Shown here piece after piece: positions 4,284-28,625 of a DNA stretch of 32,000 bases. The notes under the pieces were generated by a model that was given only the letters and a program-made list of their open reading frames with translations, had not been told where the DNA came from and made no database searches. The stretch is from Caedibacter taeniospiralis (GTDB lineage: Bacteria; Pseudomonadota; Gammaproteobacteria; Francisellales; Francisellaceae): NCBI RefSeq assembly GCF_002803295.2, contig NZ_PGGB02000001.1:77477-109476 (forward strand), written 5' to 3'. A program made the translations under genes and the position numbers. The stretch's first letter is position 1; every line of letters starts with the position of its first letter.

Positions 4284-5399
4284 TTAGATCTCAAAACATT
4301 GTGTCATGACTTTTAACACTTCATCGCCTTCGTGTACGGTTGCCGATGAGGTGCGAGTCAATAATAAAGCTTCTTGTGCCAAGGTCAAAACTTGTGGTTC
4401 AGCTAAAGCTAAAATACTGCTTTTATCATATACAGTCGCAAGTGGAGTATTGGGCTTTTGCAAGCCACCTAACAGGTGATCGGCATAAGCCACCATCCCT
4501 CCCATCGGCGCTCTAATACGAAAAAAGTCGCGCTCAAGGCAGGCATACTGCGGCATATGAGGTTTCGCTATGTCAGTATTTTTAATATAGGCGATGATGC
4601 CTTTAAGCAAGGTTTCAGCATTTCCTAAGTCAAAACTCTCTTTATTCCCCATCTCATAGGTGAACGCATGTTTTGGTGGTACTTTGTTTTCGCCTGTGAG
4701 ATTATTCCAACACTCGGTCAGCTGCCACCAGGGATAAAAAATAGCCTGGTTAAAACAGCCACTTGGCTCATTGGGGGTCAAAATAAACGCATTGCTGTTA
4801 AAATGTCTTAAGCGTTCATCTTGCAAATAGTTAGGGGCATAGATATATGGCACTGAAATGGAATCACAGTGCAAATCAAAGCTAAAATCAGCATTTAGCG
4901 CCAGATGGTGCAGGATATTGGCAAGCTTCTCATACGGTGCATTATCGTGCTGAAAGCAGGTGTTCAAACGCTCTCTTAACAAAGCTAAAAACCGCTCACA
5001 CAGCACCACAAACCCCTGTTTTTGATGCGCTTTAACAAAGGCATCTAAATCAATTGCAGGCAACTTGCCATAGGGCATCAGCAGATTTTTAAATCCGCGA
5101 TTCCAATTCTCACCCGTTTTGGCATCAAAGCGCCCATAGGTGTACTCACCAATTTTGATATCCATCGCAAACGGATTAGCAAACGGCACTAAGGTCACAT
5201 TGTAGGGAAAATCATGCGTCTCTAAATATTGCCGCAGTAGATAAATCAAGGCAATGCCATTGCTTTCAGCAGCATGCAATGCCGCTTGCATGTAAATATT
5301 CGCCTTGGCCTTAGGGTGTCTATATTCCATGACACTGAGGCTATGGGTTAATCCTGAAATAGTTGTTCTAAAAGGAATTTCTCTAATTTGTATCATCAT
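4284..5399 (-). CDS. succinylglutamate desuccinylase/aspartoacylase (AstE/AspA, M14-like) family zinc hydrolase
   Basis: 371 aa. It has an HxxE zinc motif (ALHAAESNG) and a downstream DLH motif (FDLHCD), as in the AstE/AspA family. Its ATG overlaps the dapF stop (ATGA at 5396-5399). Confidence 0.6.
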   Translation of the reverse strand: MMIQIREIPFRTTISGLTHSLSVMEYRHPKAKANIYMQAALHAAESNGIALIYLLRQYLETHDFPYNVTLVPFANPFAMDIKIGEYTYGRFDAKTGENWNRGFKNLLMPYGKLPAIDLDAFVKAHQKQGFVVLCERFLALLRERLNTCFQHDNAPYEKLANILHHLALNADFSFDLHCDSISVPYIYAPNYLQDERLRHFNSNAFILTPNEPSGCFNQAIFYPWWQLTECWNNLTGENKVPPKHAFTYEMGNKESFDLGNAETLLKGIIAYIKNTDIAKPHMPQYACLERDFFRIRAPMGGMVAYADHLLGGLQKPNTPLATVYDKSSILALAEPQVLTLAQEALLLTRTSSATVHEGDEVLKVMTQCFEI

Positions 5400-6178
5400 A
5401 TTTCCCCTATATTTCCACTAAAAATCGTTTTGATTGCACCGGTTAATAAAACCTCTTCTGCCATACACTCAACAATGAGCTGGCTAACTGCATTTTCCAC
5501 CGTCACCTTGGGTTTTAATCGCCCAAGATAAACTCCTGAAAAAACACAGGCAATGCTGCCACTGCCACACGATGGCGTGATTCCCGTACCACGCTCCCAA
5601 TGCTCAACATAGATTCGATCGTATGCCAACTGTTTTACTGCATGAACATTTATACCACCTTGATATCTTTGCTGCAGCGACATCCCAAGTTCATCAAAGG
5701 AGCCTGCCTCATTAAGATTACGCCATAACACCAGATGGGGATTCCCCACATCCACTTCCACAGCGGCATCAAACTCCGAATCATCTGTGATGATATATTG
5801 CCCAGGCTTAATACTGGGCAATGGAAAAGCGACCTGAATCCAATCATGTGCGATCATCTGGCAACGATGCACAAAGCCTCCTACTTCAATTTCAACATGC
5901 TGAGTGTTCTTTTCCGCCAATAGCAAACTTGCCACGGCGCGTAAACCATTGCCACATTGCTTTGCCTTAGAGCCATCTTGATTATAGATGTGCATGCTGG
6001 CATCCGCTTTGCCTGATTTTCTAATCAAAAGCAGCTGATCGGCGCCCACGCCAAAGCGCCGATCACAGATTTGTTTAACTTGCTGGGGCTGCCAATTGCG
6101 TGGACGCTCTCGTTCATCGATTACGACGAAGTCATTGCCCAGCGCGCACATCTTGGTAAATATAAGTGGCTTATTCAC
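5396..6178 (-). CDS. dapF: diaminopimelate epimerase
   Basis: 260 aa. FTKMCALGNDFVVID, GVGADQLLLI, both catalytic Cys motifs (QCGNGLR and SCGSGS) and VGNPHLVL align with E. coli DapF. The GTG start overlaps the upstream KS stop by 8 nt. Confidence 0.8.
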   Translation of the reverse strand: MNKPLIFTKMCALGNDFVVIDERERPRNWQPQQVKQICDRRFGVGADQLLLIRKSGKADASMHIYNQDGSKAKQCGNGLRAVASLLLAEKNTQHVEIEVGGFVHRCQMIAHDWIQVAFPLPSIKPGQYIITDDSEFDAAVEVDVGNPHLVLWRNLNEAGSFDELGMSLQQRYQGGINVHAVKQLAYDRIYVEHWERGTGITPSCGSGSIACVFSGVYLGRLKPKVTVENAVSQLIVECMAEEVLLTGAIKTIFSGNIGEI

Positions 6179-7409
6179 TGAGGTAATCCTTAAAAATCAA
6201 TGAGGTATTAATTCCGCCAAAGGCGAAATTATTGCTCATGACAATATTCGTTTTAATCGCTTGTGCGCTACCCATAATATAATTAAGTCCTGCACAGGCT
6301 GCATCGACTTCGACAAGATTTGCCGTGGGCATAAACAAACCATCTTTCATCATCATGATGCTAAGCCAGGATTCCAGCGCACCACAAGCTCCCAGAGTAT
6401 GACCGAAATTGCCCTTCAATGAACTGATCGGAACCTGGTTACCAAAGATTGCAAAAGTTGCCTCACTTTCGGCAATATCCCCTCTATCAGTCGCGGTACC
6501 GTGCGCTGAAATATAGCCGATATCTTGAGCCTCAAGCTTTGCATCACTTAAAGCAAGTTTTAATGCTTCAACCATTTTCTCGGCGGTGGGCTGGGTGATA
6601 TGCCTTGCATCACAATTGGTACCAAAACCCGCGACTTCGGCATAAATCTTAGCTCCTCGCGCCTTGGCATGCTCATATTCCTCCAGAATCAATGTACAAG
6701 CCCCTTCACCAAGCACGAGCCCATCTCTGTTTTTATCAAATGGTCTTGGCGTTAAGTGTGGGGAGTCGTTCTTTTGACTCGTTGCAAACAAAGTATCAAA
6801 AATCGTCACCTGGCTTGGACATAACTCTTCAGCACCTCCTGCTAACATGATCTTTTGATAGCCGTGCTTAATCGCTTCATACGCATAACCAATCGCCTGT
6901 GAGCTTGAGGTACATGCGCTGGATGTTGGAATTACGCGTCCTGTTAGACCAAAAATCAGTGCTATATTAACTGCACAGGTGTGACTCATTGATTTCAAAT
7001 AAGTTGTTGCACTGACATTTTTCACCGTGCATTCTGTTCTTATTTTTATCAGATCACACAAGGCTTCAGTACTCCCAGAGCAAGAGCCATAGGCAATCCC
7101 AACCTGTCCACTTTCCAGTAACTCAAACTCTTCCAACAACCCTGCATCCATCAACGCATTTTCACTTGCTACGGTCGCAAGATGGGCTACACGCCCCATT
7201 GATCTTAGCTGCTTACGCGTATAGTGTTCAGGCATTTTAAAATCAAGAATTGGCGCGCCAAGATTGGTATGTAACCCTTGAATCTGTGACCACTTACTCA
7301 TTCTTTTTATGGCTGTTTTACCACTAAGCAACGCCTCTTTAATAGTTTCCCAATCACTTCCTAGAGCGCTGACTCCAGCCATTCCTGTAATCACAACACG
7401 CTCTGTCAT
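6171..7409 (-). CDS. beta-ketoacyl-ACP synthase, FabF/KAS-II-like (second KS of the module)
   Basis: A Cys-His-His triad is present (SSACTSS, ARHITQP, AHGTATDRGD) and the C-terminus is NNFAFGGINTSLIF. The ORF track starts at 7469, but MTERVVITGMAGVSALG from ATG 7409 is the canonical KS N-terminus and forms an ATGA overlap with the upstream reductase stop. Confidence 0.85.
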   Translation of the reverse strand: MTERVVITGMAGVSALGSDWETIKEALLSGKTAIKRMSKWSQIQGLHTNLGAPILDFKMPEHYTRKQLRSMGRVAHLATVASENALMDAGLLEEFELLESGQVGIAYGSCSGSTEALCDLIKIRTECTVKNVSATTYLKSMSHTCAVNIALIFGLTGRVIPTSSACTSSSQAIGYAYEAIKHGYQKIMLAGGAEELCPSQVTIFDTLFATSQKNDSPHLTPRPFDKNRDGLVLGEGACTLILEEYEHAKARGAKIYAEVAGFGTNCDARHITQPTAEKMVEALKLALSDAKLEAQDIGYISAHGTATDRGDIAESEATFAIFGNQVPISSLKGNFGHTLGACGALESWLSIMMMKDGLFMPTANLVEVDAACAGLNYIMGSAQAIKTNIVMSNNFAFGGINTSLIFKDYLSE

Positions 7410-8134
7410 ATGAGTCCACCATTGACTGAAATCACTTGGCGCGTGATGTAACTTGCAGCATCTGAGCATAGAAAGTTAATGACAGCGGCGACCTCTTCCA
7501 CTGTACCCGCGCGACGCATGGGGATACGTTTTTCAATTTCGTTTTTGTACTCTAAATCCTTGGTCATATCAGTTTCTATCAAGCCAGGAGCAACGCAATT
7601 GACGGTAATTTTACGTTTAGCAAGTTCCAATGCCAGGGCTTTAGTCGCACCAATAATGCCTGATTTTGCCGCACTATAATTGACCTGTCCTTTATTGCCA
7701 GCCATTCCTGAGACTGATGCCAGCGTCACGATTCTGCCACCTGTACGCTGCTGAATCATCGGCATCACACAGGGCTTTAGCACATTGTAGAAGCCATCGA
7801 GGTTGGTATGAATGACACGATCCGACATATCTTCTTCCATTGCAGGAAACGGCACATCCAGACAAATGCCCGCATTATTAACAACCGCATAAAATGCGCC
7901 ATTTTGCGCAATTTCTGCCATCAGCCTCTCTTTACAGGCTGCTCTATCTTGTATATCAAACTGGATTAAACAAGCCTTTCTGCCATTTTCCTCAATGAGG
8001 CGAGCGGTTTCTTTTGCCCCCTTATCATCACGATGGTAATGCACGACCACTTCAAACCCTGATTGTGCGAGCATAATCGCCACACTTTGACCAATGCCTT
8101 TACTGGCCCCCGTTACTAACGCTCTTCTAGTCAA
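7406..8134 (-). CDS. 3-oxoacyl-ACP reductase (FabG-like SDR)
   Basis: 242 aa. It has the TGASKGIGQ Rossmann motif, NNAG, and a YSAAK catalytic motif. The TTG start overlaps the upstream dehydratase stop by 8 nt. Confidence 0.85.
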   Translation of the reverse strand: MTRRALVTGASKGIGQSVAIMLAQSGFEVVVHYHRDDKGAKETARLIEENGRKACLIQFDIQDRAACKERLMAEIAQNGAFYAVVNNAGICLDVPFPAMEEDMSDRVIHTNLDGFYNVLKPCVMPMIQQRTGGRIVTLASVSGMAGNKGQVNYSAAKSGIIGATKALALELAKRKITVNCVAPGLIETDMTKDLEYKNEIEKRIPMRRAGTVEEVAAVINFLCSDAASYITRQVISVNGGLI

Positions 8135-8588
8135 AATTTTTCCCTTGAATAATTTGTTTAAACTCTATCTCACTAGGCTGATACGCACTAAATTTAGCCG
8201 ATGCCACACATTTTCCCTCCTGGTGAATTTCACATAAAAAAACTCCCAAAGGATCGCTAATCATCTCTTTTTTGGCAATGACGGTCAAAGTATCCCCTTC
8301 ATTAAAGCTCACTTGCTCTGTTTTAAAATTTCTCACACTAATCATAAACCCACGCCTTGGAGCATGTTGCTCTTTATCACCCTGAAAATAGGCAAGGGCA
8401 GCGGATGCCTGCGCCATCATCTCAATGCCAACCCAAGCATAAACCCCCTTGATTTCTTTGTCATAGAAAATATGCTCTGGGGTAATTTTAACCCCGCAAA
8501 CAGCCTGATCTTCATTAACCTGCTCGAAGGTGTCAATCAACCGCATCGGCGGTGATTGTGGGATTATTTCACTTAAATCATACTGCAT
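8127..8588 (-). CDS. hotdog-fold 3-hydroxyacyl-ACP dehydratase-like protein (ApeP/FabZ-like)
   Basis: MQYDLSEIIPQSPPMRLIDTF...WVGIEMMAQA...GFMISVRNF matches the short hotdog dehydratases found between KS and KR genes. I use ATG 8588 rather than the ORF-track TTG at 8624. Confidence 0.7.
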   Translation of the reverse strand: MQYDLSEIIPQSPPMRLIDTFEQVNEDQAVCGVKITPEHIFYDKEIKGVYAWVGIEMMAQASAALAYFQGDKEQHAPRRGFMISVRNFKTEQVSFNEGDTLTVIAKKEMISDPLGVFLCEIHQEGKCVASAKFSAYQPSEIEFKQIIQGKNFD

Positions 8589-8627
8589 ACTCAGTCCATC
8601 ACATAAAACAATGACTATTGCCAATAA

Positions 8628-9782
8628 TTAAACTGACGTTATTACCACCGAAATACTCATAAAGCAGGGCTTTTCCCAAACGCTTTTATCATTCGTTAAT
8701 TGGATTGCCGATAATTTTGGGTCAAAATGATCATTGTTTACTTGTGCAGGTAACTTTCTCTCAGGGTTATATGCTTTCAAGAGTAAAAGCGCACATAATG
8801 CCATCTCCGTCGCACTTGCAGCACCCAAAGTGTGACCTGTTAGAGGCTTAGTTGAGCTGCAGCATACGCGATCCGCAAAGACTTCATAAATTGCGCAACT
8901 TTCCATCGCATCATTTTTGGGCGTTGCCGTCCCATGCGTGTTGATATAGGCAATATCCATGGGCTTAATATTGGCGTCCATGAGTGCATTAAGCATCGCT
9001 TGTTTTGCCCCTTTGCCTTCTGGGTCTGGGGAGGTGATATGATAGGCATCAGAAGTCTCACCGCCGCCTAATAACTCAAGTTCGCTTGAATGCTTACTTA
9101 AAATAAATAATGCCACACCTTCTCCAATATTAATGCCATCCCGATTTTGCTGAAACGGCTGGCAAATACCACTTGAGATAGAATCTAGCGCATCAAAGCC
9201 ATTTAGTGGCAATTGCGATAAGCTATCGGCTCCACCAACAATACACAAATCACACAGTCCTGCCTTGATTAGGTGTTTTGCGGACATAAATGCTTTGCCA
9301 CTGGAAGAACAGGCAGTTGAGATCACATAGGCAGGACCTCGGGCAGCTGCAAGTTTTGCAACAAACTCCGCCATTGTGCCAAATTCCTGCTGATGATAAT
9401 GAAAACTCCTTGGCATTTGCCCTGTCCTGGCATAATGCTGATAAGCCATCTCTCCTTCTAAAATGCCTGAGGTACTTGTGCCTAAGATCACGCCTATTCT
9501 TTCTGGATTCATCTTGTGTGATAAATCTTCATAGGCGGACTTTATTTCCTGAAATGCTTTAAATAGCAATCGATTATTATGACAGTCAACCTGCTGATAT
9601 TGCTCTGGCAAACTCGTTAGCTGAGCTGTCACTTTTCCCACATAGGTTTTCCTGCCACTAAAGAGCGCATCATATGGAATCAGCACTGCGCGATTCGCCA
9701 GTAACGCCCTGGCAACTTCTTCTTTACCATCACCTAGCGCATTGATCACAGCAAAATCATTAATATAGACATTATTTTTCAT
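8628..9782 (-). CDS. beta-ketoacyl-ACP synthase (first KS of the module); 3' end apparently frameshifted
   Basis: It has the KS triad (STACSSS, AYHITSPD, THGTATPKND) and GHTLGAAS. The start is ATG 9782, or TTG 9788 as in the ORF track. The annotated frame ends ..WEKPCFMSISVVITSV*, whereas the -1 frame reads ..KALLYEYFGGNNVSLIIGNSHCFM* and ends at 8599. That is the expected KS C-terminus (see findings). Confidence 0.8.
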   Translation of the reverse strand: MKNNVYINDFAVINALGDGKEEVARALLANRAVLIPYDALFSGRKTYVGKVTAQLTSLPEQYQQVDCHNNRLLFKAFQEIKSAYEDLSHKMNPERIGVILGTSTSGILEGEMAYQHYARTGQMPRSFHYHQQEFGTMAEFVAKLAAARGPAYVISTACSSSGKAFMSAKHLIKAGLCDLCIVGGADSLSQLPLNGFDALDSISSGICQPFQQNRDGINIGEGVALFILSKHSSELELLGGGETSDAYHITSPDPEGKGAKQAMLNALMDANIKPMDIAYINTHGTATPKNDAMESCAIYEVFADRVCCSSTKPLTGHTLGAASATEMALCALLLLKAYNPERKLPAQVNNDHFDPKLSAIQLTNDKSVWEKPCFMSISVVITSV

Positions 9783-9784
9783 AT

Positions 9785-10369
9785 TCAATAGTCATTTGTT
9801 TGCCCAAAGGAAGTCATGGACAAAAAGGTTGAAATTTGCCTAAAGCTCACCTCAATATCGCTATACGCGTGACCTTGCCCCGTCTTAATATCGATATTCG
9901 CACCTGCAAATACCTGTTTAGCAAATTGTATGGGTGTTGTCATATCATCCTCCTGCAGCAATACCAGGTAATTTTTCAAATCTTTCAACGTTTTTGGCAT
10001 TGCATTAACCAGCATCATCGCCTCTTCATACACATGCTGATAGGCAGGAGTTTCCGCGATCAAATCAAGGCGTACGGCGGGATTAATTAAAACCACCTTA
10101 TCAACATCATCACGAAGCTGCTTTTGCAAATGCGCCATATAGCCGCCCAGGGAGCTGCCGATAATTACTTTGTGCCTGGCGTTCGTTCTTGTCAGCAAGC
10201 GATCAATTAAGTCGAATGCTTCTTTGGTCGTCGCTGGCAATTGTGGTGCTTCTATGATCGCGTGAGGATACTGTTGCTTTAACCATACTTTAAGTTTTTG
10301 CGCTTTTGGGGAATCAGGGGAGCCCTGAAATCCATGTAAATATAAAAAATAAAGGCTGCTATTATCCAT
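9785..10369 (-). CDS. YqiA-family (UPF0227) alpha/beta-hydrolase esterase
   Basis: 194 aa. LYLHGFQGSPDSPKA, PQLP, the nucleophile elbow GSSLGGY, and NPAVR align with E. coli YqiA. The stop abuts the KS start. Confidence 0.7.
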   Translation of the reverse strand: MDNSSLYFLYLHGFQGSPDSPKAQKLKVWLKQQYPHAIIEAPQLPATTKEAFDLIDRLLTRTNARHKVIIGSSLGGYMAHLQKQLRDDVDKVVLINPAVRLDLIAETPAYQHVYEEAMMLVNAMPKTLKDLKNYLVLLQEDDMTTPIQFAKQVFAGANIDIKTGQGHAYSDIEVSFRQISTFLSMTSFGQTNDY

Positions 10370-10375
10370 TTTTCC

Positions 10376-12070
10376 TCACAACATGTACTGCCAACAATTA
10401 ATCAAATGATAGCCCGTGGTCGATTTTATCAAGTTAAAACCAGGATTACCTGAATAATCGACGTACTCAACAGGTAAATCATGATCGATAAAGGTCGCAC
10501 TGAATGTATCAAACACTGAGGCTAAAGACGCAGATTGTCCGCTCATTGCCAAGTAACGCATATACTCCAGCATCGGCCAAATGCGATATGGCGAGGTTTG
10601 TTCATTTTCATGCAGATTGGGTCTCACGTATCCCTTCGCACTCAAGCCTTGCTTTAAAGTCTGCTCAAAGAGGGTTTTATCATCATCCATCACACTGATA
10701 TCAACACCTAAACTCTTCGCTTCGGTCATTAAAGAGCACCACTCAAAGCTGTGTCCTGGCTCAAATATTTCAGGTTGCTCTTCAATAGAGTACTCACGTA
10801 TCAGTTTTTTTTGTGGATCAAAAAACAATACCATGATCTTGCGATACAAGTCTTCGGCTTGCGCTTTAAATAAAGTTTCACGGGTATGCCGAAAAGCCAT
10901 CAAATAGCCTTCAAACAAGTGCATCAGTGCATTTTGACCAATCACCCCTGTTTCACTTCTTAAGCGACTAAATTCGTTTTCGATAAATTTTTGGTGAATG
11001 CGTGTGTGAACATTTAAAATGTCCTCCAACAACGCTTCCTCCTTAAAATTGCCATACAGCTCACTTAGCGAAAACAACAAAAAGGCGTATTCATACGGAT
11101 CGTTGTCATTTTTGCAGAGCTTGTCTTTGTACCAACCCTGGCTAACTGAATCAAAATATTCATTTTTGATCATCTGATATAGCTGATAGGCTTTATTAAG
11201 TCCCTCTGTTGTATTGGTTAAGCGTGCATATGTTAGTAAATAAAACATGCCGCGCGTTTGGCACAATAGTCTCGTGCAATCTGCGTCAATTTCATGGGGT
11301 TTATCCAAAAACTCTGGCACATAACCCAAGTGCTCAATATTTTTAATAAGAAGCTGGTAATAACACTCCATCCAGAGCTGAATTGCCTTTTGCCTGTTTT
11401 TCAATTCAATTGCCGATAAGATTTTATCGAATACCTCTCTGATGCCCAAGTGACCTGTATCGATAATCCACGCATCTTCTGCAGGTCTTAATGGTGCCAC
11501 GACCCTATTTCTATCTTGCCTGTCCCGCGCCTCTAACTGCGCCAAAATCTCGTCATAGTCTGCCTTTTCACCTTTTACTGCAAGCTCGTCAAAACGTCTC
11601 TTTGCACGTATTCTGCTATTTGCTTCAAGAAAAAATTTATGCTTGGCATGAGGAAATACTACCGTTCCCATATCTCTGCCATCTGCCACAAGTCCATTCA
11701 CACCTTCTGCAAAGTCCTTTTGACACTGCATTAGCGCATCTCTTACCACAGATATTTTTGCAATCTTAGAAGCCATCATTCCTGTTTGCTCTTCGCGAAT
11801 GCGGCTACTAACATCAACTTCATCCAAATAGGCTTTTGTCTTATCTGCCTCAACCGAGAAACGAATATTCAGCTGCGCTAGCTTTTTTGCCAACATACGC
11901 TCATCATCCAATGGCAACTGGTGATCTAACACATAAAGTGCCGCCAGTCGATAAATTGCACCACTGTCTAGCAGGGCATAATTGAACTTTTGTGCCAATA
12001 ATCGTGACAATGTGCCCTTACCCACACCACTGGGTCCATCAATCGTAATAATTTCTACTTTATTTGGCAT
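10376..12070 (-). CDS. cmk: fusion protein: cytidylate kinase (N) + N-acylglucosamine 2-epimerase/AGE-superfamily domain (C)
   Basis: The N-terminal ~230 aa are Cmk: IITIDGPSGVGKGTLSRLLA, LDSGAIYR, DGRDMGTVVFP. The C-terminal ~335 aa carry AGE-family motifs: QNALMHLFEGYL, EPGHSFEWCSL, RIWPMLEYMRYL. The reading frame is uninterrupted. I prefer ATG 12070 (AAGG 8 nt upstream) over ATG 12103. Confidence 0.75.
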   Translation of the reverse strand: MPNKVEIITIDGPSGVGKGTLSRLLAQKFNYALLDSGAIYRLAALYVLDHQLPLDDERMLAKKLAQLNIRFSVEADKTKAYLDEVDVSSRIREEQTGMMASKIAKISVVRDALMQCQKDFAEGVNGLVADGRDMGTVVFPHAKHKFFLEANSRIRAKRRFDELAVKGEKADYDEILAQLEARDRQDRNRVVAPLRPAEDAWIIDTGHLGIREVFDKILSAIELKNRQKAIQLWMECYYQLLIKNIEHLGYVPEFLDKPHEIDADCTRLLCQTRGMFYLLTYARLTNTTEGLNKAYQLYQMIKNEYFDSVSQGWYKDKLCKNDNDPYEYAFLLFSLSELYGNFKEEALLEDILNVHTRIHQKFIENEFSRLRSETGVIGQNALMHLFEGYLMAFRHTRETLFKAQAEDLYRKIMVLFFDPQKKLIREYSIEEQPEIFEPGHSFEWCSLMTEAKSLGVDISVMDDDKTLFEQTLKQGLSAKGYVRPNLHENEQTSPYRIWPMLEYMRYLAMSGQSASLASVFDTFSATFIDHDLPVEYVDYSGNPGFNLIKSTTGYHLINCWQYML

Positions 12071-12254
12071 ATTTCTAACCTTAAACTCAAATGCCAAGGG
12101 CATTCAACAATATATCTATGAAGAATTTTGCGCCCAATTCTACTATCTATTGTTGAAGAAACCAAACTATACCCATCGCAAATCATGGTCGCCTCATTAA
12201 AATTTTGCCCATGGCACTACCTTGTAGAATCTCGTCAACTATACTTTTTGACAT

Positions 12255-14465
12255 ATGGATTATCAGGATCTGCTGAACATGAATAAAACGGGACATCGTG
12301 AACAAGGCAGTGTACTACTGATAGCACTCATCATTGTTGCTGTAGTATCAATATTATCAGGTGTTATTTTGTATATGCTGAAAGTCAGTATGGTGCAAAA
12401 TCAGGCGATTGAAAACTACAATAATGCGCGCAATGCTGCGTTTTTATCTTTAAAAAATACGATGGAAACAAATGATTACCCCTACACCAATACACCTTTA
12501 AGTCCTGTTGTAAAAAATTATACTTCAAACGCTGAAAACATTACCGTGACTAGTACGGTACCTGTGGATTTAAATGATGCTATCTTTCCCGATCATGCGG
12601 CGCTTAATAACGCCTCCGCCGTGTTGCAATATGGTGTAAATATACGGGTTACTGCACAGGCACAACACCAGATCGAATACGTAGCTATTGTCAATGCGCC
12701 CAGCCAATACAGGCAATTAAATGATTTAACATCGCAAGCAATACAAAATGTGAATATCCCTGCAGTAATTTTGACTAACTTGAATGCTTTACAAAAAAAC
12801 GCTAACAATACGATAGATGACGGGCAGGCAGGATTTCTAGGGACTATCAGTGTGGATAACACAGGAACCGTTGGGGCAGCTGGTTCTGGTAAACAGCTGA
12901 ACTATAGTCCAACCACGGGAGGGAGCCATAGTTTAGAATTTGCAGATAATGGGAATTACAAGCTCGAACAAGGCTGGTATTTAAATGCTGGAGCTTGGCA
13001 TTGGCGTTTGATCATCTATGAGGGGGCGTATGCTTACTATACGGAGATAGCTTTATCTACACTGAAAGCTCAGTCAGGGAGTTTTGCTAATTTAGCCTGG
13101 ACGCGCCTTCTTGTGCAAGACATGCTAAGCTCCCCCAATCAATATGACTCAAGTAAAGAATATCCAGCAGGCAGTTATGTGAACTATGCTGGGCAGATTT
13201 TTGTGGCGTTAAGTGAGGTCAACACAGGTCAGAATAAAGACCCTTACAGTAATTGGAGCCAATGGCGATTAATCATCCCATTTGGTACCTATCCAGCATG
13301 GAATGCGGATGTCCAATACTACAAAGGTGATATTATTACGTACAATGGTGTCAAATATGTTGGTACCATGAACAATGGGGTCGGGAAGGGGGATCCTCCC
13401 AGTAATGGCTGGGCAGTGGCGCAGTTTAATCCTGCGCCTTGGCAGAATCAAGTTTATGATCCTGGTGAGTTCGTAACTTATGAGGGCTATACTTTTGTCA
13501 ACGTCCATAAAAGTGTCGCGAGCAAAACACCATTTGAAGAGAGTGACCGCTGGAGGGTTGTTTTACCAGAGAATAGTCAGCCACTGGCTTATGATCCCCA
13601 TATTTATTACACAGAAGGTTTTAAAATCAGCTATAAGAATAATATTTTTGTAAACACCCAAGGGACAATGGAAAGCCCTGATTCCTCTCAGGCTAATCGG
13701 TGGCTTAAGATTACGACACCGATATATACAATAAAATGGATCAATATCTTTAATCTCATTTATGGTTTTACCCTCATTCAAACTACCGATGGTACTATTA
13801 AAGGGTTCATTTTTGATAATGTGGGGAATCAGGCGAGTGCGGCAGTGGAGTTAGTGACACTCTCAGATGTGACTCATGCCTATATTTTACCTATAGATAT
13901 CAGAGCGAATCAGAATGTAACCAGGTTACTGTTGTTTCTATCCGTGGCTTCGGGACTTAAGCATATTGTTGACATCACGTTAAATTCACAAGCTCAGATC
14001 ACAGCAAGCACGATTATTTACACAAAAGATGATCCAGAGGAACAACTTAGCTATGTTCCACAGGTTTTGTTTAGAGATGAAAGTAGCCATTTTTTGGTCG
14101 TGCCATACCAAAGCTACATCGAGATTTATGTCTATCCCTCTTCATCAACTACACCTTCGGCTGTTTTAAATCGATCAGTTAGTTTTCCAGGGGAAACGCT
14201 GAAACAAGTCATTCCTTTTCAGGGTTTTGTAATGGTGATTACCGAGAGTAATAGCAATCCTCCTAATGGTTTTGCCCATTTTATTGCCTTGAGAGTTAAT
14301 AAGGAATTTGCCACTGTCAATCTAAGCTCAACGACTGGCGTTTATATAACTTACAATCCAGTAACGCAACAAACGCGACTTAACACTTCAACAGACTCAA
14401 TCGGGATCGAAATTCAAGATGCGCCTATGCCTTATGGCGTGATTGGAGTGCGGGCATTGCAATAA
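12255..14465 (+). CDS. membrane-anchored protein: PilX-like N-terminal domain, four CBM5/12-like repeats, beta-rich C-terminal domain
   Basis: 736-aa ORF. The N-terminus REQGSVLLIALIIVAVVSILSGVILYML..NQ..N..ARNAAF resembles the PilX_N pilus-assembly anchor. Residues ~296-486 hold four tandem W/Y..Y..G..V.Y.G..F/Y.....P....W repeats. An alternative start is ATG 12279. Confidence 0.7.
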   Translation: MDYQDLLNMNKTGHREQGSVLLIALIIVAVVSILSGVILYMLKVSMVQNQAIENYNNARNAAFLSLKNTMETNDYPYTNTPLSPVVKNYTSNAENITVTSTVPVDLNDAIFPDHAALNNASAVLQYGVNIRVTAQAQHQIEYVAIVNAPSQYRQLNDLTSQAIQNVNIPAVILTNLNALQKNANNTIDDGQAGFLGTISVDNTGTVGAAGSGKQLNYSPTTGGSHSLEFADNGNYKLEQGWYLNAGAWHWRLIIYEGAYAYYTEIALSTLKAQSGSFANLAWTRLLVQDMLSSPNQYDSSKEYPAGSYVNYAGQIFVALSEVNTGQNKDPYSNWSQWRLIIPFGTYPAWNADVQYYKGDIITYNGVKYVGTMNNGVGKGDPPSNGWAVAQFNPAPWQNQVYDPGEFVTYEGYTFVNVHKSVASKTPFEESDRWRVVLPENSQPLAYDPHIYYTEGFKISYKNNIFVNTQGTMESPDSSQANRWLKITTPIYTIKWINIFNLIYGFTLIQTTDGTIKGFIFDNVGNQASAAVELVTLSDVTHAYILPIDIRANQNVTRLLLFLSVASGLKHIVDITLNSQAQITASTIIYTKDDPEEQLSYVPQVLFRDESSHFLVVPYQSYIEIYVYPSSSTTPSAVLNRSVSFPGETLKQVIPFQGFVMVITESNSNPPNGFAHFIALRVNKEFATVNLSSTTGVYITYNPVTQQTRLNTSTDSIGIEIQDAPMPYGVIGVRALQ
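13140..13712 (+). repeat. four tandem ~45-codon carbohydrate-binding (CBM5/12, ChtBD3-like) repeats inside the 736-aa ORF
   Basis: The four protein-level repeats are QYDSSKEYPAGSYVNYAGQIFVAL..DPYSNWSQWRL; YPAWNADVQYYKGDIITYNGVKYVGT..DPPSNGWAVA; APWQNQVYDPGEFVTYEGYTFVNV..PFEESDRWRVV; and LAYDPHIYYTEGFKISYKNNIFVNT..PDSSQANRWLKI. Confidence 0.6.
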
Positions 14466-14585: not shown

Positions 14586-15803
14586 ATGAAAAAAATCCTC
14601 TTGTGCGTTACTGGCAGTGTGGCAGCCTACAAGGCTCTGGAATTGACCAGGCTTTTAACCAAGGAAAATTATGAGGTGAAAGTCATATTAACCAAGGCAG
14701 CCCAAGAATTTGTGACGCGTTTAAGTTTTGAAGCGCTTTGTCAGCACAGAGTTTATGATGATTTATTCCGCTATACCGACAACCCGATTGAGCATATTGA
14801 ACTCGCTCGCTGGGCGGATCAGATTGTGATAGCACCAGCTTCGGCAAACACCATTGGCAAACTTGCAGCTGGACTTGCAGGTGATTTACTCGGGAATGTC
14901 GTATTGGCAACCGATAAACCTGTTTATATTGCGCCAGCCATGAATAAACTGATGTGGCAAAATAGCATTGTGCGGGAAAATTTAGCCAAACTTAAAGATA
15001 GAGGATGTGTGGTGCTTCCCCCAGACTCAGGCGAGCAAGCCTGTGGCGATGTTGGCGAAGGTCGCTTAATGGAGCCCGAAGCAATTGTAAAAAATATTTT
15101 CCATGCAATAGCAGAAATTGATAAAACAGTGCTTATAACTGCAGGACCAACGGTCGAGCGACTCGATCCTGTGCGCTATATTTCCAATCACAGCTCAGGG
15201 AAAATGGGTTATGCTTTAGCACAAAGTTTTGTACATTTGGGCTGGAGAGTGATCTTGATTTCTGGACCAACTCAGCTTCAGGCTCCCAAAGGAATAACCT
15301 TGATCAGGGTGAAAAGTGCCGATGATATGTATAAAGCGGTGCACCAATATATTGTGGATGCCGATATATTTATTGCCGCAGCGGCGGTGGCTGATTATCG
15401 CCCTGAAACTTATGTTGAGAAGAAGATTAAGAAAAAAGAGGGCGAGGAGCTTCTATCGATCAAGCTTGTCAGGAATGAAGATATTTTAAAGAGCGTATCA
15501 TCGTTAACGCATCATCGTCCGTTGTGTGTTGGATTTGCCGCTGAAACCCACAATGCCAAGGAGAATGCGCTGAGTAAAATCAGTAGTAAAGCCCTTGACT
15601 TTTTGGTGCTCAATCAAATCGATAATGAAACTGGTTTTCCCTTTTATAGTGAGCAAAATCAGGTACAGGTCTATGATCACCTGCATCAGCTTGTATTGGA
15701 TTTGGCGCGGATGTCAAAAAAAGAAATCGCTCAAGAGATTGCAAAACTATTGAATAGGCAAATACTGAAAAAAGAAATTCAGACGGAATTAAGCTATGAA
15801 TAG
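14586..15803 (+). CDS. coaBC: bifunctional phosphopantothenoylcysteine decarboxylase / phosphopantothenate-cysteine ligase
   Basis: 405 aa. It has the flavoprotein N-domain (ILLCVTGSVAAYKALEL, APASANTIGKLA, PAMN..MW) and the CoaB C-domain (ITAGPT.E.LDPVRYISNHSSGKMG, AAAVADYRP). Confidence 0.9.
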   Translation: MKKILLCVTGSVAAYKALELTRLLTKENYEVKVILTKAAQEFVTRLSFEALCQHRVYDDLFRYTDNPIEHIELARWADQIVIAPASANTIGKLAAGLAGDLLGNVVLATDKPVYIAPAMNKLMWQNSIVRENLAKLKDRGCVVLPPDSGEQACGDVGEGRLMEPEAIVKNIFHAIAEIDKTVLITAGPTVERLDPVRYISNHSSGKMGYALAQSFVHLGWRVILISGPTQLQAPKGITLIRVKSADDMYKAVHQYIVDADIFIAAAAVADYRPETYVEKKIKKKEGEELLSIKLVRNEDILKSVSSLTHHRPLCVGFAAETHNAKENALSKISSKALDFLVLNQIDNETGFPFYSEQNQVQVYDHLHQLVLDLARMSKKEIAQEIAKLLNRQILKKEIQTELSYE

Positions 15804-19146: not shown

Positions 19147-19470
19147 TCAGTTTAAGCTGATCTGTACATCAACCCCCGCAGCCAGATCAAGTTTCATTAG
19201 GGCATCTACTGTTTTTTCAGTTGGCTCAACGATATCGATCAAACGCTTGTGAGTTCTGATTTCATACTGGTCACGAGCATCCTTATTAACGTGTGGAGAA
19301 ATCAGTATCGTGAAACGCTCTTTACGTACGGGAAGAGGGATAGGACCTCTTACCTGCGCGCCTGTTCTTTTTGCTGTTTCAACAATCTCTTTAGTTGATA
19401 GATCAATTAATTTATGGTCAAACGCTTTCAAGCGAATGCGAATGCGCTGGTTACTTATATTTGTTGCCAT
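19147..19470 (-). CDS. rpsJ: 30S ribosomal protein S10
   Basis: 107 aa. [15 protein letters not shown]...[17 protein letters not shown].. is the classic S10 sequence. Confidence 0.95.
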
Positions 19471-19488
19471 TTTATTTCAACCTTCTAG

Positions 19489-21585
19489 TTATGAGTTACG
19501 CTTTTTAATGATGTCTTCTGCAATATTATTTGGCACTTCTGCATACTTTTCAAACTCCATAGAGAATGACGCACGCCCTTGAGAGATTGAGCGTACATTC
19601 GTTGCATAACCAAACATCTCCGCCAATGGCACCAAAGCATTGACCACCTTACCACTTGGATTTTCATCCATGCCAGAGATCATGCCGCGACGACGGTTTA
19701 AGTCACCAATCACATCACCCATATACTCTTCAGGCATAACCACTTCAACTTTCATCAAAGGCTCCAGAATCACAGGCGACGCTTTTTGTGCACCCGCTTT
19801 GACAGCCATTGAACCCGCGATTTTAAATGCCATCTCAGATGAGTCCACATCGTGATATGAACCATCATAAAGCGTTGCTTTCACATCAATCATAGGATAT
19901 CCCGCAATGACGCCGTTCTTCAATTGCTCTTCAATCCCCTTACCGACGGCACCGATATATTCTCTAGGCACTGTACCACCAACGATCTGGTCGACAAACT
20001 CAAAGCCTTTACCCATTTCTTGCGGTTCCAACTTGATCCATACATGACCGTATTGACCACGACCACCAGACTGGCGAACAAACTTACCTTCCGCCTCAAC
20101 TTTTTGCTTAATTGTTTCGCGGTAAGCTACTTGTGGGTTACCTACATTCGCTTCTACTTTGAACTCACGCCTCATACGATCAACAATAATCTCCAGGTGA
20201 AGTTCACCCATTCCAGAGATAATCGTTTGACCTGATTCCTCGTCCGTATGTACGCGGAAAGATGGATCTTCTGCTGCTAGACGACCCAATGCTAAAGACA
20301 TTTTTTCCTGGTCTGCTTTTGATTTTGGCTCAACCGCCACTGAAATTACTGGCTCTGGGAAGTCCATACGCTCCAGTGTGATAATTTTATTCTCATCACA
20401 CAACGTATCCCCTGTTGTCACCTGTTTCAATCCAATACATGCCGCAATATCACCCGCACGGACTTCTTTGATTTCATCGCGCTTATTGGCGTGCATTTGA
20501 ACGATACGACCGATACGCTCTTTCTTACCTTTTACTGGGTTATAAACAGAGTCACCTGATTGCAGTACACCCGAGTAAACACGGATAAACGTCAGGTTAC
20601 CAATAAATGGATCTGCTGCTAATTTAAATGCAAGCGCTGCAAATGGCTCATCATCGGAAGATTTACGTGATGCTTCTGTACCATCTTCTAACTCGCCACG
20701 AATCGCAGGGACTTCATTTGGCGCAGGAAGATAACGCACCACACCATCAAGAACTGCCTGAACGCCTTTATTTTTAAACGCTGAACCACAGAATGCCAAT
20801 ACGATTTCGTTATTAATCACACGCTGACGTAATCCCGCATGAATCTCATCATCGGTTAGCTCTTCACCTTCAAGGTATTTATTCATCAATACTTCATTAG
20901 CCTCAGCAGCTGCTTCAACAACCCCCTGGCGAAGCTCTGCAGCGTGCTTATGAAGCCCAGCTGGAATTTCTTCTAATGTATAGGTTAAGCCTTTATCTTC
21001 CTCGTTCCACATGATTGCTTTCATGCGCACAAGGTCAATAACTCCTTTGAATTCTTCTTCAGCGCCAATATTTAGCTGCATAGGCACAACAGTCGCTTTC
21101 AAGCGCGTTCTGATTTGACCCAACACGCGCTCAAAGTTGGCTCCCGCTCTATCCATTTTGTTCACAAATACGATGCGCGGAACGCCATATTTATTTGCCT
21201 GGCGCCACACCGTTTCTGATTGTGGCTCAACACCAGAAGAACCACAGAAAACAACAACTGCACCATCTAATACGCGCAAAGAACGCTCTACTTCGATCGT
21301 GAAGTCCACGTGTCCTGGGGTGTCGATAATGTTAATGCGATGCTTGTCAAACTGTTTATCCATACCTTGCCAGAAAACAGTGGTCGCAGCAGAGGTAATC
21401 GTGATTCCACGCTCCTGTTCCTGCTCCATCCAGTCCATTGTTGCGGTACCATCATGCACCTCACCAATTTTGTGAGAAACACCTGTATAAAACAACACCC
21501 GCTCGGTGGTGGTTGTTTTTCCCGCATCAACGTGGGCACAGATGCCAATATTCCTGTATTTACTAAGTTCTGTCGCTCGTGACAT
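19489..21585 (-). CDS. fusA: translation elongation factor G
   Basis: 698 aa. [52 protein letters not shown] and NKMDR are present. Confidence 0.97.
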
Positions 21586-21600
21586 GAGTTTTCTCCAATC

Positions 21601-22478
<878 letters not shown>

Positions 22479-23068: not shown

Positions 23069-23407
23069 TTAAAAAGCCGCTTTCACCCACTGAATTTCAC
23101 CCCCAGTAATACCAATAACATCAAAGCGGCATTCAGCATTCTGATATCGTGTATAACGCTGAAGGAAAATCTCCGCAGTTTTGCGAATCTTTATTTGTTT
23201 GGTTTTGCTCACCATGTCAAGTGCTGTGCCAAACTCAGCACTTCTTCTTGCCTTCACCTCAACAAATAGCACTATACCATCAAGGACGCCAATGAGATCA
23301 ATCTCACCCAGGGGGGTTGAAAAATTCTGACAAATGAGGCTAAAGCCATTTTGCTGTAAAAACTGACATGCCTGCTCTTCTGCATTTTGCCCTATTTGGC
23401 GACTCAT
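23069..23407 (-). CDS. yraN: YraN-family (UPF0102) endonuclease-like protein
   Basis: 112 aa. GEIDLIG, VLFVEVKARRS, RFDVIGITG..IQWVKAAF align with E. coli YraN. Confidence 0.85.
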   Translation of the reverse strand: MSRQIGQNAEEQACQFLQQNGFSLICQNFSTPLGEIDLIGVLDGIVLFVEVKARRSAEFGTALDMVSKTKQIKIRKTAEIFLQRYTRYQNAECRFDVIGITGGEIQWVKAAF

Positions 23408-25523: not shown

Positions 25524-26168
25524 ATGCCCGCTGACCTCACTACTTACCTTAATGCCTTTGTAATGTTTATCATCCCTATGCTATTTGCCATCACACTGCA
25601 TGAGGCAGCGCATGGGTTTATTGCCAAACTTCGAGGCGACCAAACGGCTTATCTTATGGGGCGCGTGACACTTAACCCCATTAAGCACATCGATATTTTG
25701 GGAACGATTATTCTACCCACTGCCATGTTTCTATTAGGAACAGGCTTTCTTTTTGGCTGGGCAAAACCTGTTCCTGTTAATTTCAGCCATCTTAAAAAGC
25801 CGCGCCAAGACATGATTTTAGTGGCAATCGCAGGACCACTTGCCAACTTTGCTATGGCGATTATGTGGTTTTTATTATGGAAATTTGTCCCTAACTTTGG
25901 CTTCCACCAAATGGCACAATTTGGTGTTGTACTGAACTTAATGCTGATGGTGTTTAATCTACTGCCCATCCCACCTCTAGATGGCAGTCGCGTCGTTAGC
26001 GCCCTACTGCCCTATAAAGCCACTTTGCAATACAATCGCCTTGAGCGCTGGGGATTTCTAATCGTGCTGCTCTTATTGTTTATCCCCTTTGGTCAGTCAA
26101 ATTTACTTGCAAGCATACTGATCCCAATCATCAACAAACTCTATCAGCTCGTTCAGTTTATCTTTTGA
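25524..26168 (+). CDS. site-2 protease family (M50) membrane metalloprotease
   Basis: 214 aa. It has the HEAAHG (HExxH) motif in the first TM helix and NLLPIPPLDG in a later helix. Confidence 0.8.
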   Translation: MPADLTTYLNAFVMFIIPMLFAITLHEAAHGFIAKLRGDQTAYLMGRVTLNPIKHIDILGTIILPTAMFLLGTGFLFGWAKPVPVNFSHLKKPRQDMILVAIAGPLANFAMAIMWFLLWKFVPNFGFHQMAQFGVVLNLMLMVFNLLPIPPLDGSRVVSALLPYKATLQYNRLERWGFLIVLLLLFIPFGQSNLLASILIPIINKLYQLVQFIF

Positions 26169-27467: not shown

Positions 27468-28625
27468 ATGCACGCACTCAACAAAAACACAATAGACGCC
27501 TTAATAGACATCCACAGTTACTCACCACCTGAACTTGATGTCAAGAAACATTACAACTCGAGCTACCAACATGTCTTACTCACTGGTGCCAACGGCTATT
27601 TAGGCGTTCATCTAATTGATGAGCTGCTTAAACACACAGACGCTTTGGTTTATTGTGCAATTCGAGCAGAGTCAATATCAGAAGCCCAGAAGAAACTCGA
27701 TCTTAACCTACATCGCTATGGCTTCTTTGAGCATACAGCCAACCCGAGGCTTTATATTGTTTTAGTTGACCTGGCTAAACCGCAACTTGGATTAGAGGGT
27801 CTAAAATGGCAGGCAATGTGTGAAACCATTGACGCCATTTATCACAACGGTGCGTACGTCCACCACCTGCAAACCTACGAGCGCATGGCTCCCACTAATG
27901 TCGGCAGCACAACGGCAATCATTGAACTGGCAAGCCAAATAAAACTTAAACGCATTCATTTCATCTCAACTAAATATGCTGCGGTTAATTGCGTGTCAAC
28001 CATCGCCAAAGAAGGCATGCCTACTATTGCGCCTATTCATCCTGATATTAGCTTCGGCTATACCACCACTAAATGGACAGCTGAATGGCTATTGTGGAAA
28101 GCACAAGAAAATGGCATCCCTGTTGATATTTATCGCTTGGGTCAAATCACAGGACAATCGACAAGTGGCAAGAGTAATTATGAAAAAAACAATTTAACTC
28201 ATTTTATCTTGGGCTGTATCGACATGGGTTATGCACCTGATTTACAAGCACAGCACGAGATGATTCCAGTTGACCAGGCTGCCAAGAGCATCATATCTCT
28301 GTCTTTGCTGACATACCAAAAAGCCAATGGCTGGAACCTCGTTAATAATTTACAAATTACGCATGGTGATATCTTTACGATTATCAATGAACTCGGTTAT
28401 TCTATCAAAAAATTGCCACCTATCATTTGGCGCGAAAAACTCCAAAAAATTGATCAAAGTAACCCGCTTTTTCCCTTAATTTCTTACTATAACAATGACG
28501 AAACGATGCCTTTTATCACAACAGAAAATCACAAAACCATGGTCGCATTAAAAAAGCTGGGCATCAATATTACTGAAGATTATCACGCGCTTTTTAAACG
28601 CTATCTTCACTATTGGCAGAGATAG
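27468..28625 (+). CDS. stand-alone thioester-reductase (NRPS/PKS/CAR terminal R-domain-like) SDR protein
   Basis: 385 aa. VLLTGANGYLGVHL (the TGxxGxxG motif), AIYHNGA, and the YTTTKW (YxxxK) catalytic motif match the NAD_binding_4 / thioester reductase architecture. An in-frame stop lies 33 nt upstream of the ATG. Confidence 0.75.
   Translation: MHALNKNTIDALIDIHSYSPPELDVKKHYNSSYQHVLLTGANGYLGVHLIDELLKHTDALVYCAIRAESISEAQKKLDLNLHRYGFFEHTANPRLYIVLVDLAKPQLGLEGLKWQAMCETIDAIYHNGAYVHHLQTYERMAPTNVGSTTAIIELASQIKLKRIHFISTKYAAVNCVSTIAKEGMPTIAPIHPDISFGYTTTKWTAEWLLWKAQENGIPVDIYRLGQITGQSTSGKSNYEKNNLTHFILGCIDMGYAPDLQAQHEMIPVDQAAKSIISLSLLTYQKANGWNLVNNLQITHGDIFTIINELGYSIKKLPPIIWREKLQKIDQSNPLFPLISYYNNDETMPFITTENHKTMVALKKLGINITEDYHALFKRYLHYWQR

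Follow-up and report, generated by a model that had tools for sequence, protein, structure and literature searches.

A conserved eight-gene block in Caedibacter taeniospiralis: a probable composite of three units, including an apparently detached ApeO-P-Q-R module

Eight minus-strand genes lie end to end at positions 4284–12070 of the stretch of Caedibacter taeniospiralis contig NZ_PGGB02000001.1 analysed here (the ‘window’, 32 kb in full). They encode a (d)CMP kinase fused to an epimerase-like domain, an esterase, a ketosynthase–dehydratase–ketoreductase–ketosynthase (KS-DH-KR-KS) module, a diaminopimelate epimerase and a zinc hydrolase. We regard the block, with a probability of about 0.7, as a composite of three functionally separate units in one conserved operon, which would be co-transcribed and translationally coupled in the compact genome of a member of the Fastidiosibacteraceae. 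In unit A (the fusion and the esterase), the lineage's ordinary cmk, located behind serC as in the ancestor, would have joined with an adjacent gene for an AGE-family sugar epimerase/isomerase, the esterase gene being the likely usual neighbour of AGE in this family. Unit B, apeO-apeP-apeQ-apeR, would be the 3′ terminal sub-operon of an aryl-polyene (APE)-type type II polyketide synthase (PKS), detached from the rest. Unit C, dapF and the hydrolase gene, would provide the last two steps to meso-diaminopimelate (DAP). The gene identities, junctions, conservation and modular distribution are direct observations; that the block yields a single transcript is probable. The features are, from the 5′ end of the block:

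12071–12254, no strand: divergent intergenic region 5′ of the block, the only sizeable non-coding gap at that end
11372–12070, minus strand: Cmk domain of the fusion, (d)CMP kinase (TIGR00017, 226 bits, cutoff 135.55)
10376–11371 including the stop, minus strand: AGE-family (N-acylglucosamine 2-epimerase-like) domain, in frame with Cmk (PF07221, 77 bits, cutoff 23.4)
9785–10369, minus strand: UPF0227 (YqiA/YcfP-family) alpha/beta-hydrolase esterase (PF05728, 85.5 bits, cutoff 21)
8599–9782, minus strand: ApeO-type ketosynthase KS1, disrupted, the actual open reading frame (ORF) ending at 8628–8630 (PRK09185, 458 bits, cutoff 407)
8127–8588, minus strand: ApeP-type hotdog dehydratase subunit (PF22817, ApeP-like, 78 bits; best match in PDB 6QSR_B)
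7406–8134, minus strand: ApeQ-type ketoreductase, FabG2 (TIGR01831 fabG_rel, 360.9 bits, cutoff 338.85; NF004200, 377.9 bits)
6171–7409, minus strand: ApeR-type (FabB-like) ketosynthase KS2 (PRK09116, 668 bits, cutoff 470)
5396–6178, minus strand: dapF, diaminopimelate epimerase (TIGR00652, 195 bits, cutoff 114.65)
4284–5399, minus strand: AstE/AspA-family (M14-like) zinc amidohydrolase (PF24827 AstE_AspA_cat, 51.7 bits, cutoff 25)

Layout, conservation and modularity of the block

When ORFs and junctions were re-derived from the sequence, all eight minus-strand genes were found between 4284 and 12070, joined as tightly as an initial annotation of this DNA had described, and its domain calls (Cmk::AGE, UPF0227, KS, hotdog DH, short-chain dehydrogenase/reductase-type KR, KS, DapF and M14-like AstE/AspA) were reproduced with Pfam and NCBIfam. 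The fusion stop (TGA, 10376–10378), with GAGGA lying across it, is 6 nt from the esterase ATG (10369), and the esterase stop (9785–9787) overlaps a TTG at 9788 and is separated by 2 nt from the ATG of KS1 (9782). DH and KR overlap by 8 nt, with KR starting at TTG 8134 to match homologues of 242 aa; KR and KS2 have an ATGA in common (7406–7409); KS2 and dapF overlap by 8 nt, dapF starting at GTG 6178; and a second common ATGA (5396–5399) joins dapF to the hydrolase gene. The starts at 12070, 8134 (TTG), 7409 and 6178 (GTG) agree with homologue lengths, the fusion start being best placed at ATG 12070 because its homologues are 564 aa long.

The block has seven consecutive junctions of ≤10 nt, as against 3/17 equally tight same-strand pairs elsewhere in the window, so that a run of seven is not background. 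Those three pairs all join functionally unrelated genes (coaBC/mutL, with an 8-nt overlap at 15796–15803; prlC/UPF0102, which abut at 23407/23408 with 0 nt between them; and M50-like/DUF498, with a 4-nt overlap at 26165–26168), so that in this genome genes need not belong to one pathway to be coupled. Sequence scans found promoter-like sites inside the block at the level of chance (22, against 21.8 expected) and terminator-like sites without clear enrichment (12, against 7.6 ± 2.9 expected), while tRNA and Rfam scans of the window returned no matches. At the 5′ end there was one weak promoter-like match on the minus strand (12266–12238), and the divergent intergenic region would be the likeliest site of an operon promoter.

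For comparison with the window, related genomic and metagenomic loci were assembled, numbered here with the prefix L. Five Cysteiniphilum species or metagenome-assembled genomes (MAGs), Fastidiosibacter lacustris and further Caedibacter contigs carry all eight genes in an unchanged order, joined just as tightly but flanked by different genes; the linkage, whose conservation the initial annotation had left to neighbourhood comparison, is thus kept in three genera. Across the block, DNA identity to the window was 94% for L011 and 99.5% for L025. Values of dN/dS between the window and L011 ranged from 0.08 to 0.24 over all nine coding segments and were lowest in DH, KR and KS2; all genes of the block are under purifying selection. 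Between genera, KR (85%) and KS2 (82.5%) were more conserved than Cmk and DapF (72% each).

Outside these three genera the block came apart into its constituent units. The marine relative L003 had serC followed by a stand-alone cmk::AGE and then 1.6 kb of non-coding DNA of 26% GC (L003:11696–13342), in which no called genes and no remnants of esterase, KS or dap genes were detected. Facilibium (L005) carried an unfused AGE-esterase pair, a LysR regulator, an MFS transporter, KS-DH-KR-KS and an Sfp/HetI-type 4′-phosphopantetheinyl transferase (PPTase); in Fangia neither AGE nor the esterase gene accompanied KS-DH-KR-KS-PPTase, and dapF and the hydrolase gene lay together on another contig. AGE-esterase-PPTase with no adjacent KS module was seen in the metagenomic relative L006, AGE-PPTase in the metagenomic relative L039, AGE alone in one Francisellaceae MAG, and the dapF-AstE pair without KS genes in a Francisella species. 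The PPTase gene was thus beside the KS module in Facilibium (L005:9612–10304) and Fangia (L022:13584–14279) and beside AGE or AGE-esterase in L006 (11624–12283) and L039 (4121–4657); there was none in the window. Scans of genome and metagenome collections with the KS1 alignment recovered 11 and 14 loci respectively, numbers that are no census of APE clusters because the back-translated patterns are clade-specific.

This distribution bears most directly on the proposal, made in the initial annotation, that all eight genes make one acyl or lipo-amino-acid-type product; an acylated amino acid resembling DAP would be one such. Tight coupling in three genera is what such a pathway would lead one to expect. 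However, the dapF-hydrolase pair belongs to the DAP/lysine pathway, being found in complete lysine/DAP operons and also without KS genes; DapF passes its equivalog cutoff; cmk is probably the lineage's ordinary housekeeping orthologue; and what follows the KS module in Facilibium and Fangia is the PPTase gene, not dapF-AstE. Because the block is modular, with sub-blocks occurring alone, a unified pathway is not supported; it is largely refuted by this distribution, and we give it very little credence. It mostly dissolves because tight coupling in a compact genome is no evidence of a shared pathway. The annotation's other suggestion, a fortuitous operon of housekeeping genes, comes closer to the truth for 4/8 genes but not for ApeOPQR, which are not canonical FabF/FabZ/FabG.

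The ApeO-P-Q-R module

Sequence comparison identifies the KS-DH-KR-KS genes as orthologues of ApeO, ApeP, ApeQ and ApeR, the order that the initial annotation had given for APE-type clusters: curated models, best matches in PDB and canonical clusters all agree with it. KS1 matched ApeO structures best (6QSP_A, 341 bits, and 7F28_B), and its Cys-His-His triad (C158, H283, H317) is invariant in homologues. The ketoreductase was 85% identical to its Cysteiniphilum orthologue and 65% identical to ApeQ of the canonical cluster L023. The best structural matches of KS2 were 4EWG (516 bits) and Acinetobacter baumannii ApeR, 7F27 (489 bits), compared with approximately 250 bits for FabF structures, and KS2 has kept the residues at the positions that align with Tyr135 and Phe202, the aryl-stacking pair of A. 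baumannii ApeR (roles as described in PMC8358021). In the ApeP-type alignment, the Glu of IEMMAQ and one Arg were invariant but no His was; a His (xHxF) lies near the expected loop in 4/5 DH sequences of the family and is replaced by Asn in Facilibium. The one ApeI examined, from canonical cluster L027 (L027:3820–4185), has a FabZ-type QGHFP motif, and the comparison suggests that ApeP and ApeI would contribute complementary half-sites to a single active site.

In the collection scans the nearest loci outside the family were canonical APE clusters (L023 and L026–L031). Those of L023 and L027 close with the same KS-DH-KR-KS quartet (identities to L023 of 43, 31, 65 and 56%, in that order), and in canonical clusters the quartet is preceded by a GT2/LpxL-type acyltransferase, a 4HBT thioesterase, LolA-like, MMPL and DUF3261 genes and, in L023 only, an aromatic amino acid lyase. 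The initial annotation had noted that the usual companions are missing, and tblastn, with positive controls that worked, likewise found no acyl carrier protein (ACP), acyl ligase, acyltransferase, LolA or MMPL gene in the 32-kb window. Queries with E. coli AcpP and both APE ACPs of L027 gave no match in the window or the family loci, though they found acpP in L032–L038 and ACPs in L023. The upstream ORFs of L027, including ApeI (a tblastn query set with no ApeC-like member), matched L023 and nothing in the window or 12 related loci. No third KS-like ORF was seen in the window or related loci, and no starter ligase, lyase or 4HBT gene, acyltransferase, LolA, MMPL or DUF3261 in the window or within ±10 kb at Fastidiosibacteraceae or Fangia loci.

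Where such systems have been characterised, ApeO forms a heterodimer with ApeC, the chain-length factor, ApeP is partnered by another hotdog subunit, ApeI/H, ApeR is a FabB-like homodimer, and the chain is carried by two dedicated ACPs (PMC8358021, PMC8253772). Since ApeO needs ApeC, ApeP needs ApeI and no ACP lies nearby, the module must rely on partners encoded elsewhere. ApeOPQR would run cycles of condensation, ketoreduction and dehydration without enoyl reduction on a chain bound to a carrier protein, with partners that may be encoded by the remaining genes of a split APE cluster or may be the housekeeping AcpP and FabZ.

KS1 itself is disrupted in the window, which lacks a 10-bp segment, ATTCATTTGC, carried by both L011 and L025 at the equivalent of approximately position 8654 (8640–8660). 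In those two relatives KS1 is intact, at 397 aa, with its stop 10 nt before the DH ATG. The frame-restored stop at 8599–8601 given in the initial annotation therefore holds for the relatives but is not reached in the window, owing to the deletion: the ORF there ends at 8628–8630 with the residues FMSISVVITSV, and the conserved NSFAFGGNN C-terminus is lost, a segment that carries the gating Phe of ApeO (PMC8358021). A single-base sequencing error was ruled out, since comparison with the two close relatives shows a lesion of 10 bp, which is no homopolymer slip. Either the gene has been inactivated in this strain specifically or the deletion is an assembly artefact; given purifying selection on all nine coding segments against L011, any decay of KS1 must be recent.

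Were these genes the organism's only FabF, FabZ and FabG, the module would be plain housekeeping fatty-acid synthesis (FAS). The small genome and very strong conservation would fit this, and KR passes NF004200, a model named FabG. However, both ketosynthases fail the FabF model (TIGR03150; 369 bits for KS2 and 182 bits for the other, against a cutoff of 494), DH scored only 29 bits against FabZ models (TIGR01750, cutoff 155) and has no invariant catalytic His, and KR falls short of TIGR01830 (269 bits, cutoff 298). There is no adjacent fabI, fabD, fabH or acpP, unlike in real FAS loci (L032–L038), KS1 is broken, and close homologues of the module sit in secondary-metabolite APE clusters. On the equivalog scores, the DH lacking an invariant His and the broken KS1, this reading was rejected, and we hold it to be scarcely credible. 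A rhizobial, acpXL-type very-long-chain fatty acid (VLCFA) module was also rejected: there is no ACP, the order is KS-DH-KR-KS and the proteins fall in Ape families, grounds on which we concur with the initial annotation in setting it aside.

Two accounts of how unit B obtains its partners deserve more weight. The one we prefer, tentatively and at rather less than even odds, is a split APE cluster, in which the other ape genes (apeA-N, including apeC, apeI, apeE/F and the starter and export genes) lie elsewhere in the genome and an ordinary APE pigment lipid is made. In the characterised systems ApeO and ApeP each form half of an enzyme, paired with ApeC and with ApeI/H respectively (PMC8358021, PMC8253772), and the motifs described above follow the same division, the ApeP-like protein having no invariant catalytic His and ApeI having GHFP; KS2 retains the residues aligned with Tyr135 and Phe202, and selection on the genes is strongly purifying. 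The E. coli APE cluster has apeC at one end and apeO-R at the other (PMC8253772), so a single break would give exactly this four-gene unit. Weighing on the other side, no other Ape gene was found in the 32-kb window or within ±10 kb of ten related loci, and some 14 further pigment genes would be costly in a genome of only 1,092 coding sequences (PMC7297999). Our literature search for APE or antiSMASH clusters in Francisellaceae and Fastidiosibacteraceae found no relevant report, and none of APE clusters in the latter.

Less probable, in our view unlikely, is an autonomous minimal module, in which ApeOPQR has been re-purposed without ApeC or ApeI and works on housekeeping AcpP or a carrier primed by the Sfp-type PPTase that adjoins it in Fangia and Facilibium. 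Its product would be a short acyl chain of the unsaturated or 3-hydroxy kind, freed by the UPF0227 esterase, and a sugar acceptor may be provided or altered by the AGE-family enzyme. It would explain why AGE-esterase, the KS module and the PPTase gene adjoin in recurring pairwise combinations, why KR and KS2 are so much more conserved than Cmk and DapF, and why the genes are kept in a 1.3-Mb endosymbiont genome, and the xHxF His of 4/5 family DH sequences speaks for it too. That His, however, is Asn in Facilibium; each piece also occurs alone, a pattern that fits inherited synteny with differential loss; and no ACP or acyltransferase lies nearby, while apeO of the window is broken. More doubtful still is the fuller proposal that AGE-esterase-ApeOPQR, joined by the Sfp-type PPTase in some genera, is a self-sufficient minimal type II PKS, previously undescribed and belonging to the Fastidiosibacteraceae/Fangia lineage, which would make a new unsaturated acyl or acyl-sugar lipid with no chain-length factor, ApeI or ACP of its own, a product important enough to explain its retention by a 1.3-Mb obligate endosymbiont.

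The flanking units and their surroundings

The kinase half of the fusion retains the residues conserved among fused homologues (GPSGxGKGT, D35-S36-G37, R41, R110, D130-G-R-D133, R182, D186 and R189), including the P-loop and the CMP-binding Arg/Asp residues characteristic of a (d)CMP kinase. The nearest standalone Cmk proteins were those of Facilibium (65% identity), Fangia (64%) and Francisella (55–59%), and similarity in the domain tracks the species tree. No standalone Cmk from a fusion-bearing genus appeared among the best 120 matches. On sequence, the Cmk half is probably the organism's housekeeping cmk. In E. coli and other Gammaproteobacteria the gene order is serC-(aroA)-cmk-rpsA; directly upstream of the fusion in relatives lies serC (NF003764, 420 bits, cutoff 253), although in the window itself it does not. 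Divergent from the block here is a 736-aa protein (12255–14465, plus strand) whose sole match is CBM_5_12, a chitin-binding-type domain; it is kept at the same place in the Caedibacter contig L011, with serC there instead in Cysteiniphilum and Fastidiosibacter.

In other bacteria Cmk is fused to EPSP synthase, aminotransferases, prephenate dehydrogenase and CinA, among other unrelated partners, so that the cmk::AGE fusion says little about whether its two halves are functionally linked. Across 25 homologues the AGE domain shows conserved R267, H384/E387, G439-H440-x-F-E443-W444 and Y554-H555, and conservation reaches 95% or more at R267, H384, E387, H440, E443 and H555. Its sole sequence match in PDB, weak or marginal, was cellobiose 2-epimerase 5ZHB. 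AGE is unfused in Facilibium, L006, L039 and L007.

The esterase has a GSSLGG nucleophile elbow and belongs to the broader UPF0227 family; it does not pass the YqiA equivalog (NF008291), scoring 90 bits against a cutoff of 252. In Facilibium (L005) and in L006 its gene comes after AGE, with no KS module directly beside it. At approximately 9809 (L025:143), in the last esterase codons, a T-run has three residues in the window and L011 and four in L025, a difference that would alter the esterase C-terminus in L025.

In unit C, DapF has both of its catalytic Cys motifs (CGNG and SCGSG), and the hydrolase is 98% identical to a protein recorded from Caedibacter taeniospiralis. The hydrolase matched 3FMC best in PDB (160 bits, full length), followed by 3LWU, at approximately 40% identity, structures annotated only as putative succinylglutamate desuccinylase/aspartoacylase, and its LHAAE and DLHCD segments (HxxE...H) align with the His and Glu residues of these structures. 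No NCBIfam model matched; PF24827 was the sole family match, and the protein did not pass as a member of the M20 family. The subfamily is small, with 67 representatives at E ≤ 1e-30 among 1.84 billion. An AstE-like gene lies directly after dapF in 5/5 independent contexts examined. Two of these are metagenomic operons of the form asd-lysC-dapB-dapA-dapD-dapF-X, where X is the AstE-like gene (L010:4830–11110, 44% identity; L024:2529–10327, 38%). Both dapD genes pass the succinyltransferase model NF008808, L024 has an additional aminotransferase after X that is a candidate DapC, and neither dap operon has an M20 dapE, so that the DapE desuccinylase is the sole step of the succinylase branch for which they have no gene. 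A sequence from Francisella sp. (L008:1–8940) places its dapF-AstE-like pair next to an island with integrase, AlpA, primase-like and restriction-type genes.

AstE-family enzymes are zinc N-succinyl-amino-acid amidohydrolases. Because dapF-X closes succinylase operons, X is a likely non-orthologous DapE, and because its family is AstE/AspA and not M20, it is proposed to act like DapE without belonging to the DapE family. From its gene context and the chemistry of its family, we put the hydrolase that follows dapF forward as a candidate non-orthologous DapE, a role we think slightly the better bet: it would take succinate off N-succinyl-LL-DAP, and DapF would then epimerise the product. We found no paper proposing such a role for an AstE-type protein; the annotation of lysine pathways has a recognised gap where DapE is missing (GapMind, PMC7311316).

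Some considerations weigh against dividing the block into separate units in this way. Seven tight junctions kept in three genera could reflect a functional link; the varied pairs in which AGE-esterase, the KS module and the Sfp/HetI-type PPTase adjoin may mean that units A and B cooperate; and the DapE-like activity of unit C is deduced from gene context and family chemistry.

Beyond the block, the window has a GC content of approximately 42% and consists largely of core genes, among them glpX, a LysR regulator, coaBC, mutL, ilvE, rpsL-rpsG-fusA-rpsJ, prlC and COQ7. The str operon (19147–22478, minus strand) has no tuf between fusA and rpsJ and is followed by ilvE, not rplC; the same S12-S7-EF-G-S10 arrangement is present in Cysteiniphilum L001. 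Approximately 15 kb away from the KS module, an ORF at 27468–28625 (plus strand) encodes a domain of the NAD_binding_4 (‘male sterility’) type that fatty acyl-thioester reductases also have. The organism is an obligate endosymbiont of Paramecium with a 1.32-Mb genome of 41.3% GC (PMC7297999).

Significance and comparison with known systems

What remains of interest in the block is the detached ApeOPQR unit and the candidate AstE-family analogue of DapE. The former has no canonical partners locally, yet is under strong purifying selection across the family, including in an obligate Paramecium endosymbiont, and raises the question of what the widespread ‘aryl polyene’ enzymes do outside the full cluster. 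As to the latter, DapE is pursued as an antibiotic target, and a non-orthologous DapE, if true, would affect both pathway prediction and target choice.

Fusion proteins such as AroA-Cmk, PanC-Cmk and Cmk-Der resemble unit A in that Cmk is often fused to the product of an adjacent gene; what differs here is the partner, a C-terminal AGE-family epimerase, an architecture found, among the matches listed, only in Caedibacter, Cysteiniphilum, Fastidiosibacter and one marine lineage. The ancestral serC-(aroA)-cmk-rpsA order is echoed in Cysteiniphilum, Fastidiosibacter and the marine relative, where cmk likewise comes after serC. For unit C the point of likeness is the DapE/DapF succinylase branch, in that the hydrolase gene adjoins dapF and would fill the one unassigned step in two operons, although DapE is an M20 enzyme whereas the hydrolase of the window has the AstE/AspA (M14-like) fold and family.

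The rhizobial acpXL-fabZXL-fabF2XL-fabF1XL cluster is, like unit B, an accessory KS/DH set apart from the main FAS, but it starts with a dedicated ACP, has another order and includes no KR, where the window has a KR and no ACP. The closest counterparts of unit B are the APE clusters of E. coli CFT073 (apeA-R), Xenorhabdus doucetiae and Acinetobacter baumannii, which have the same four proteins in the same order. Unlike them, the window locally has no ApeI, none of the two ACPs (ApeE and ApeF), no starter ligase, lyase or thioesterase, no acyltransferases, no LolA/MMPL export genes and no third KS-like ORF corresponding to ApeC; in their place stand cmk::AGE, the esterase and the DAP-pathway genes or, in Fangia and Facilibium, the PPTase.

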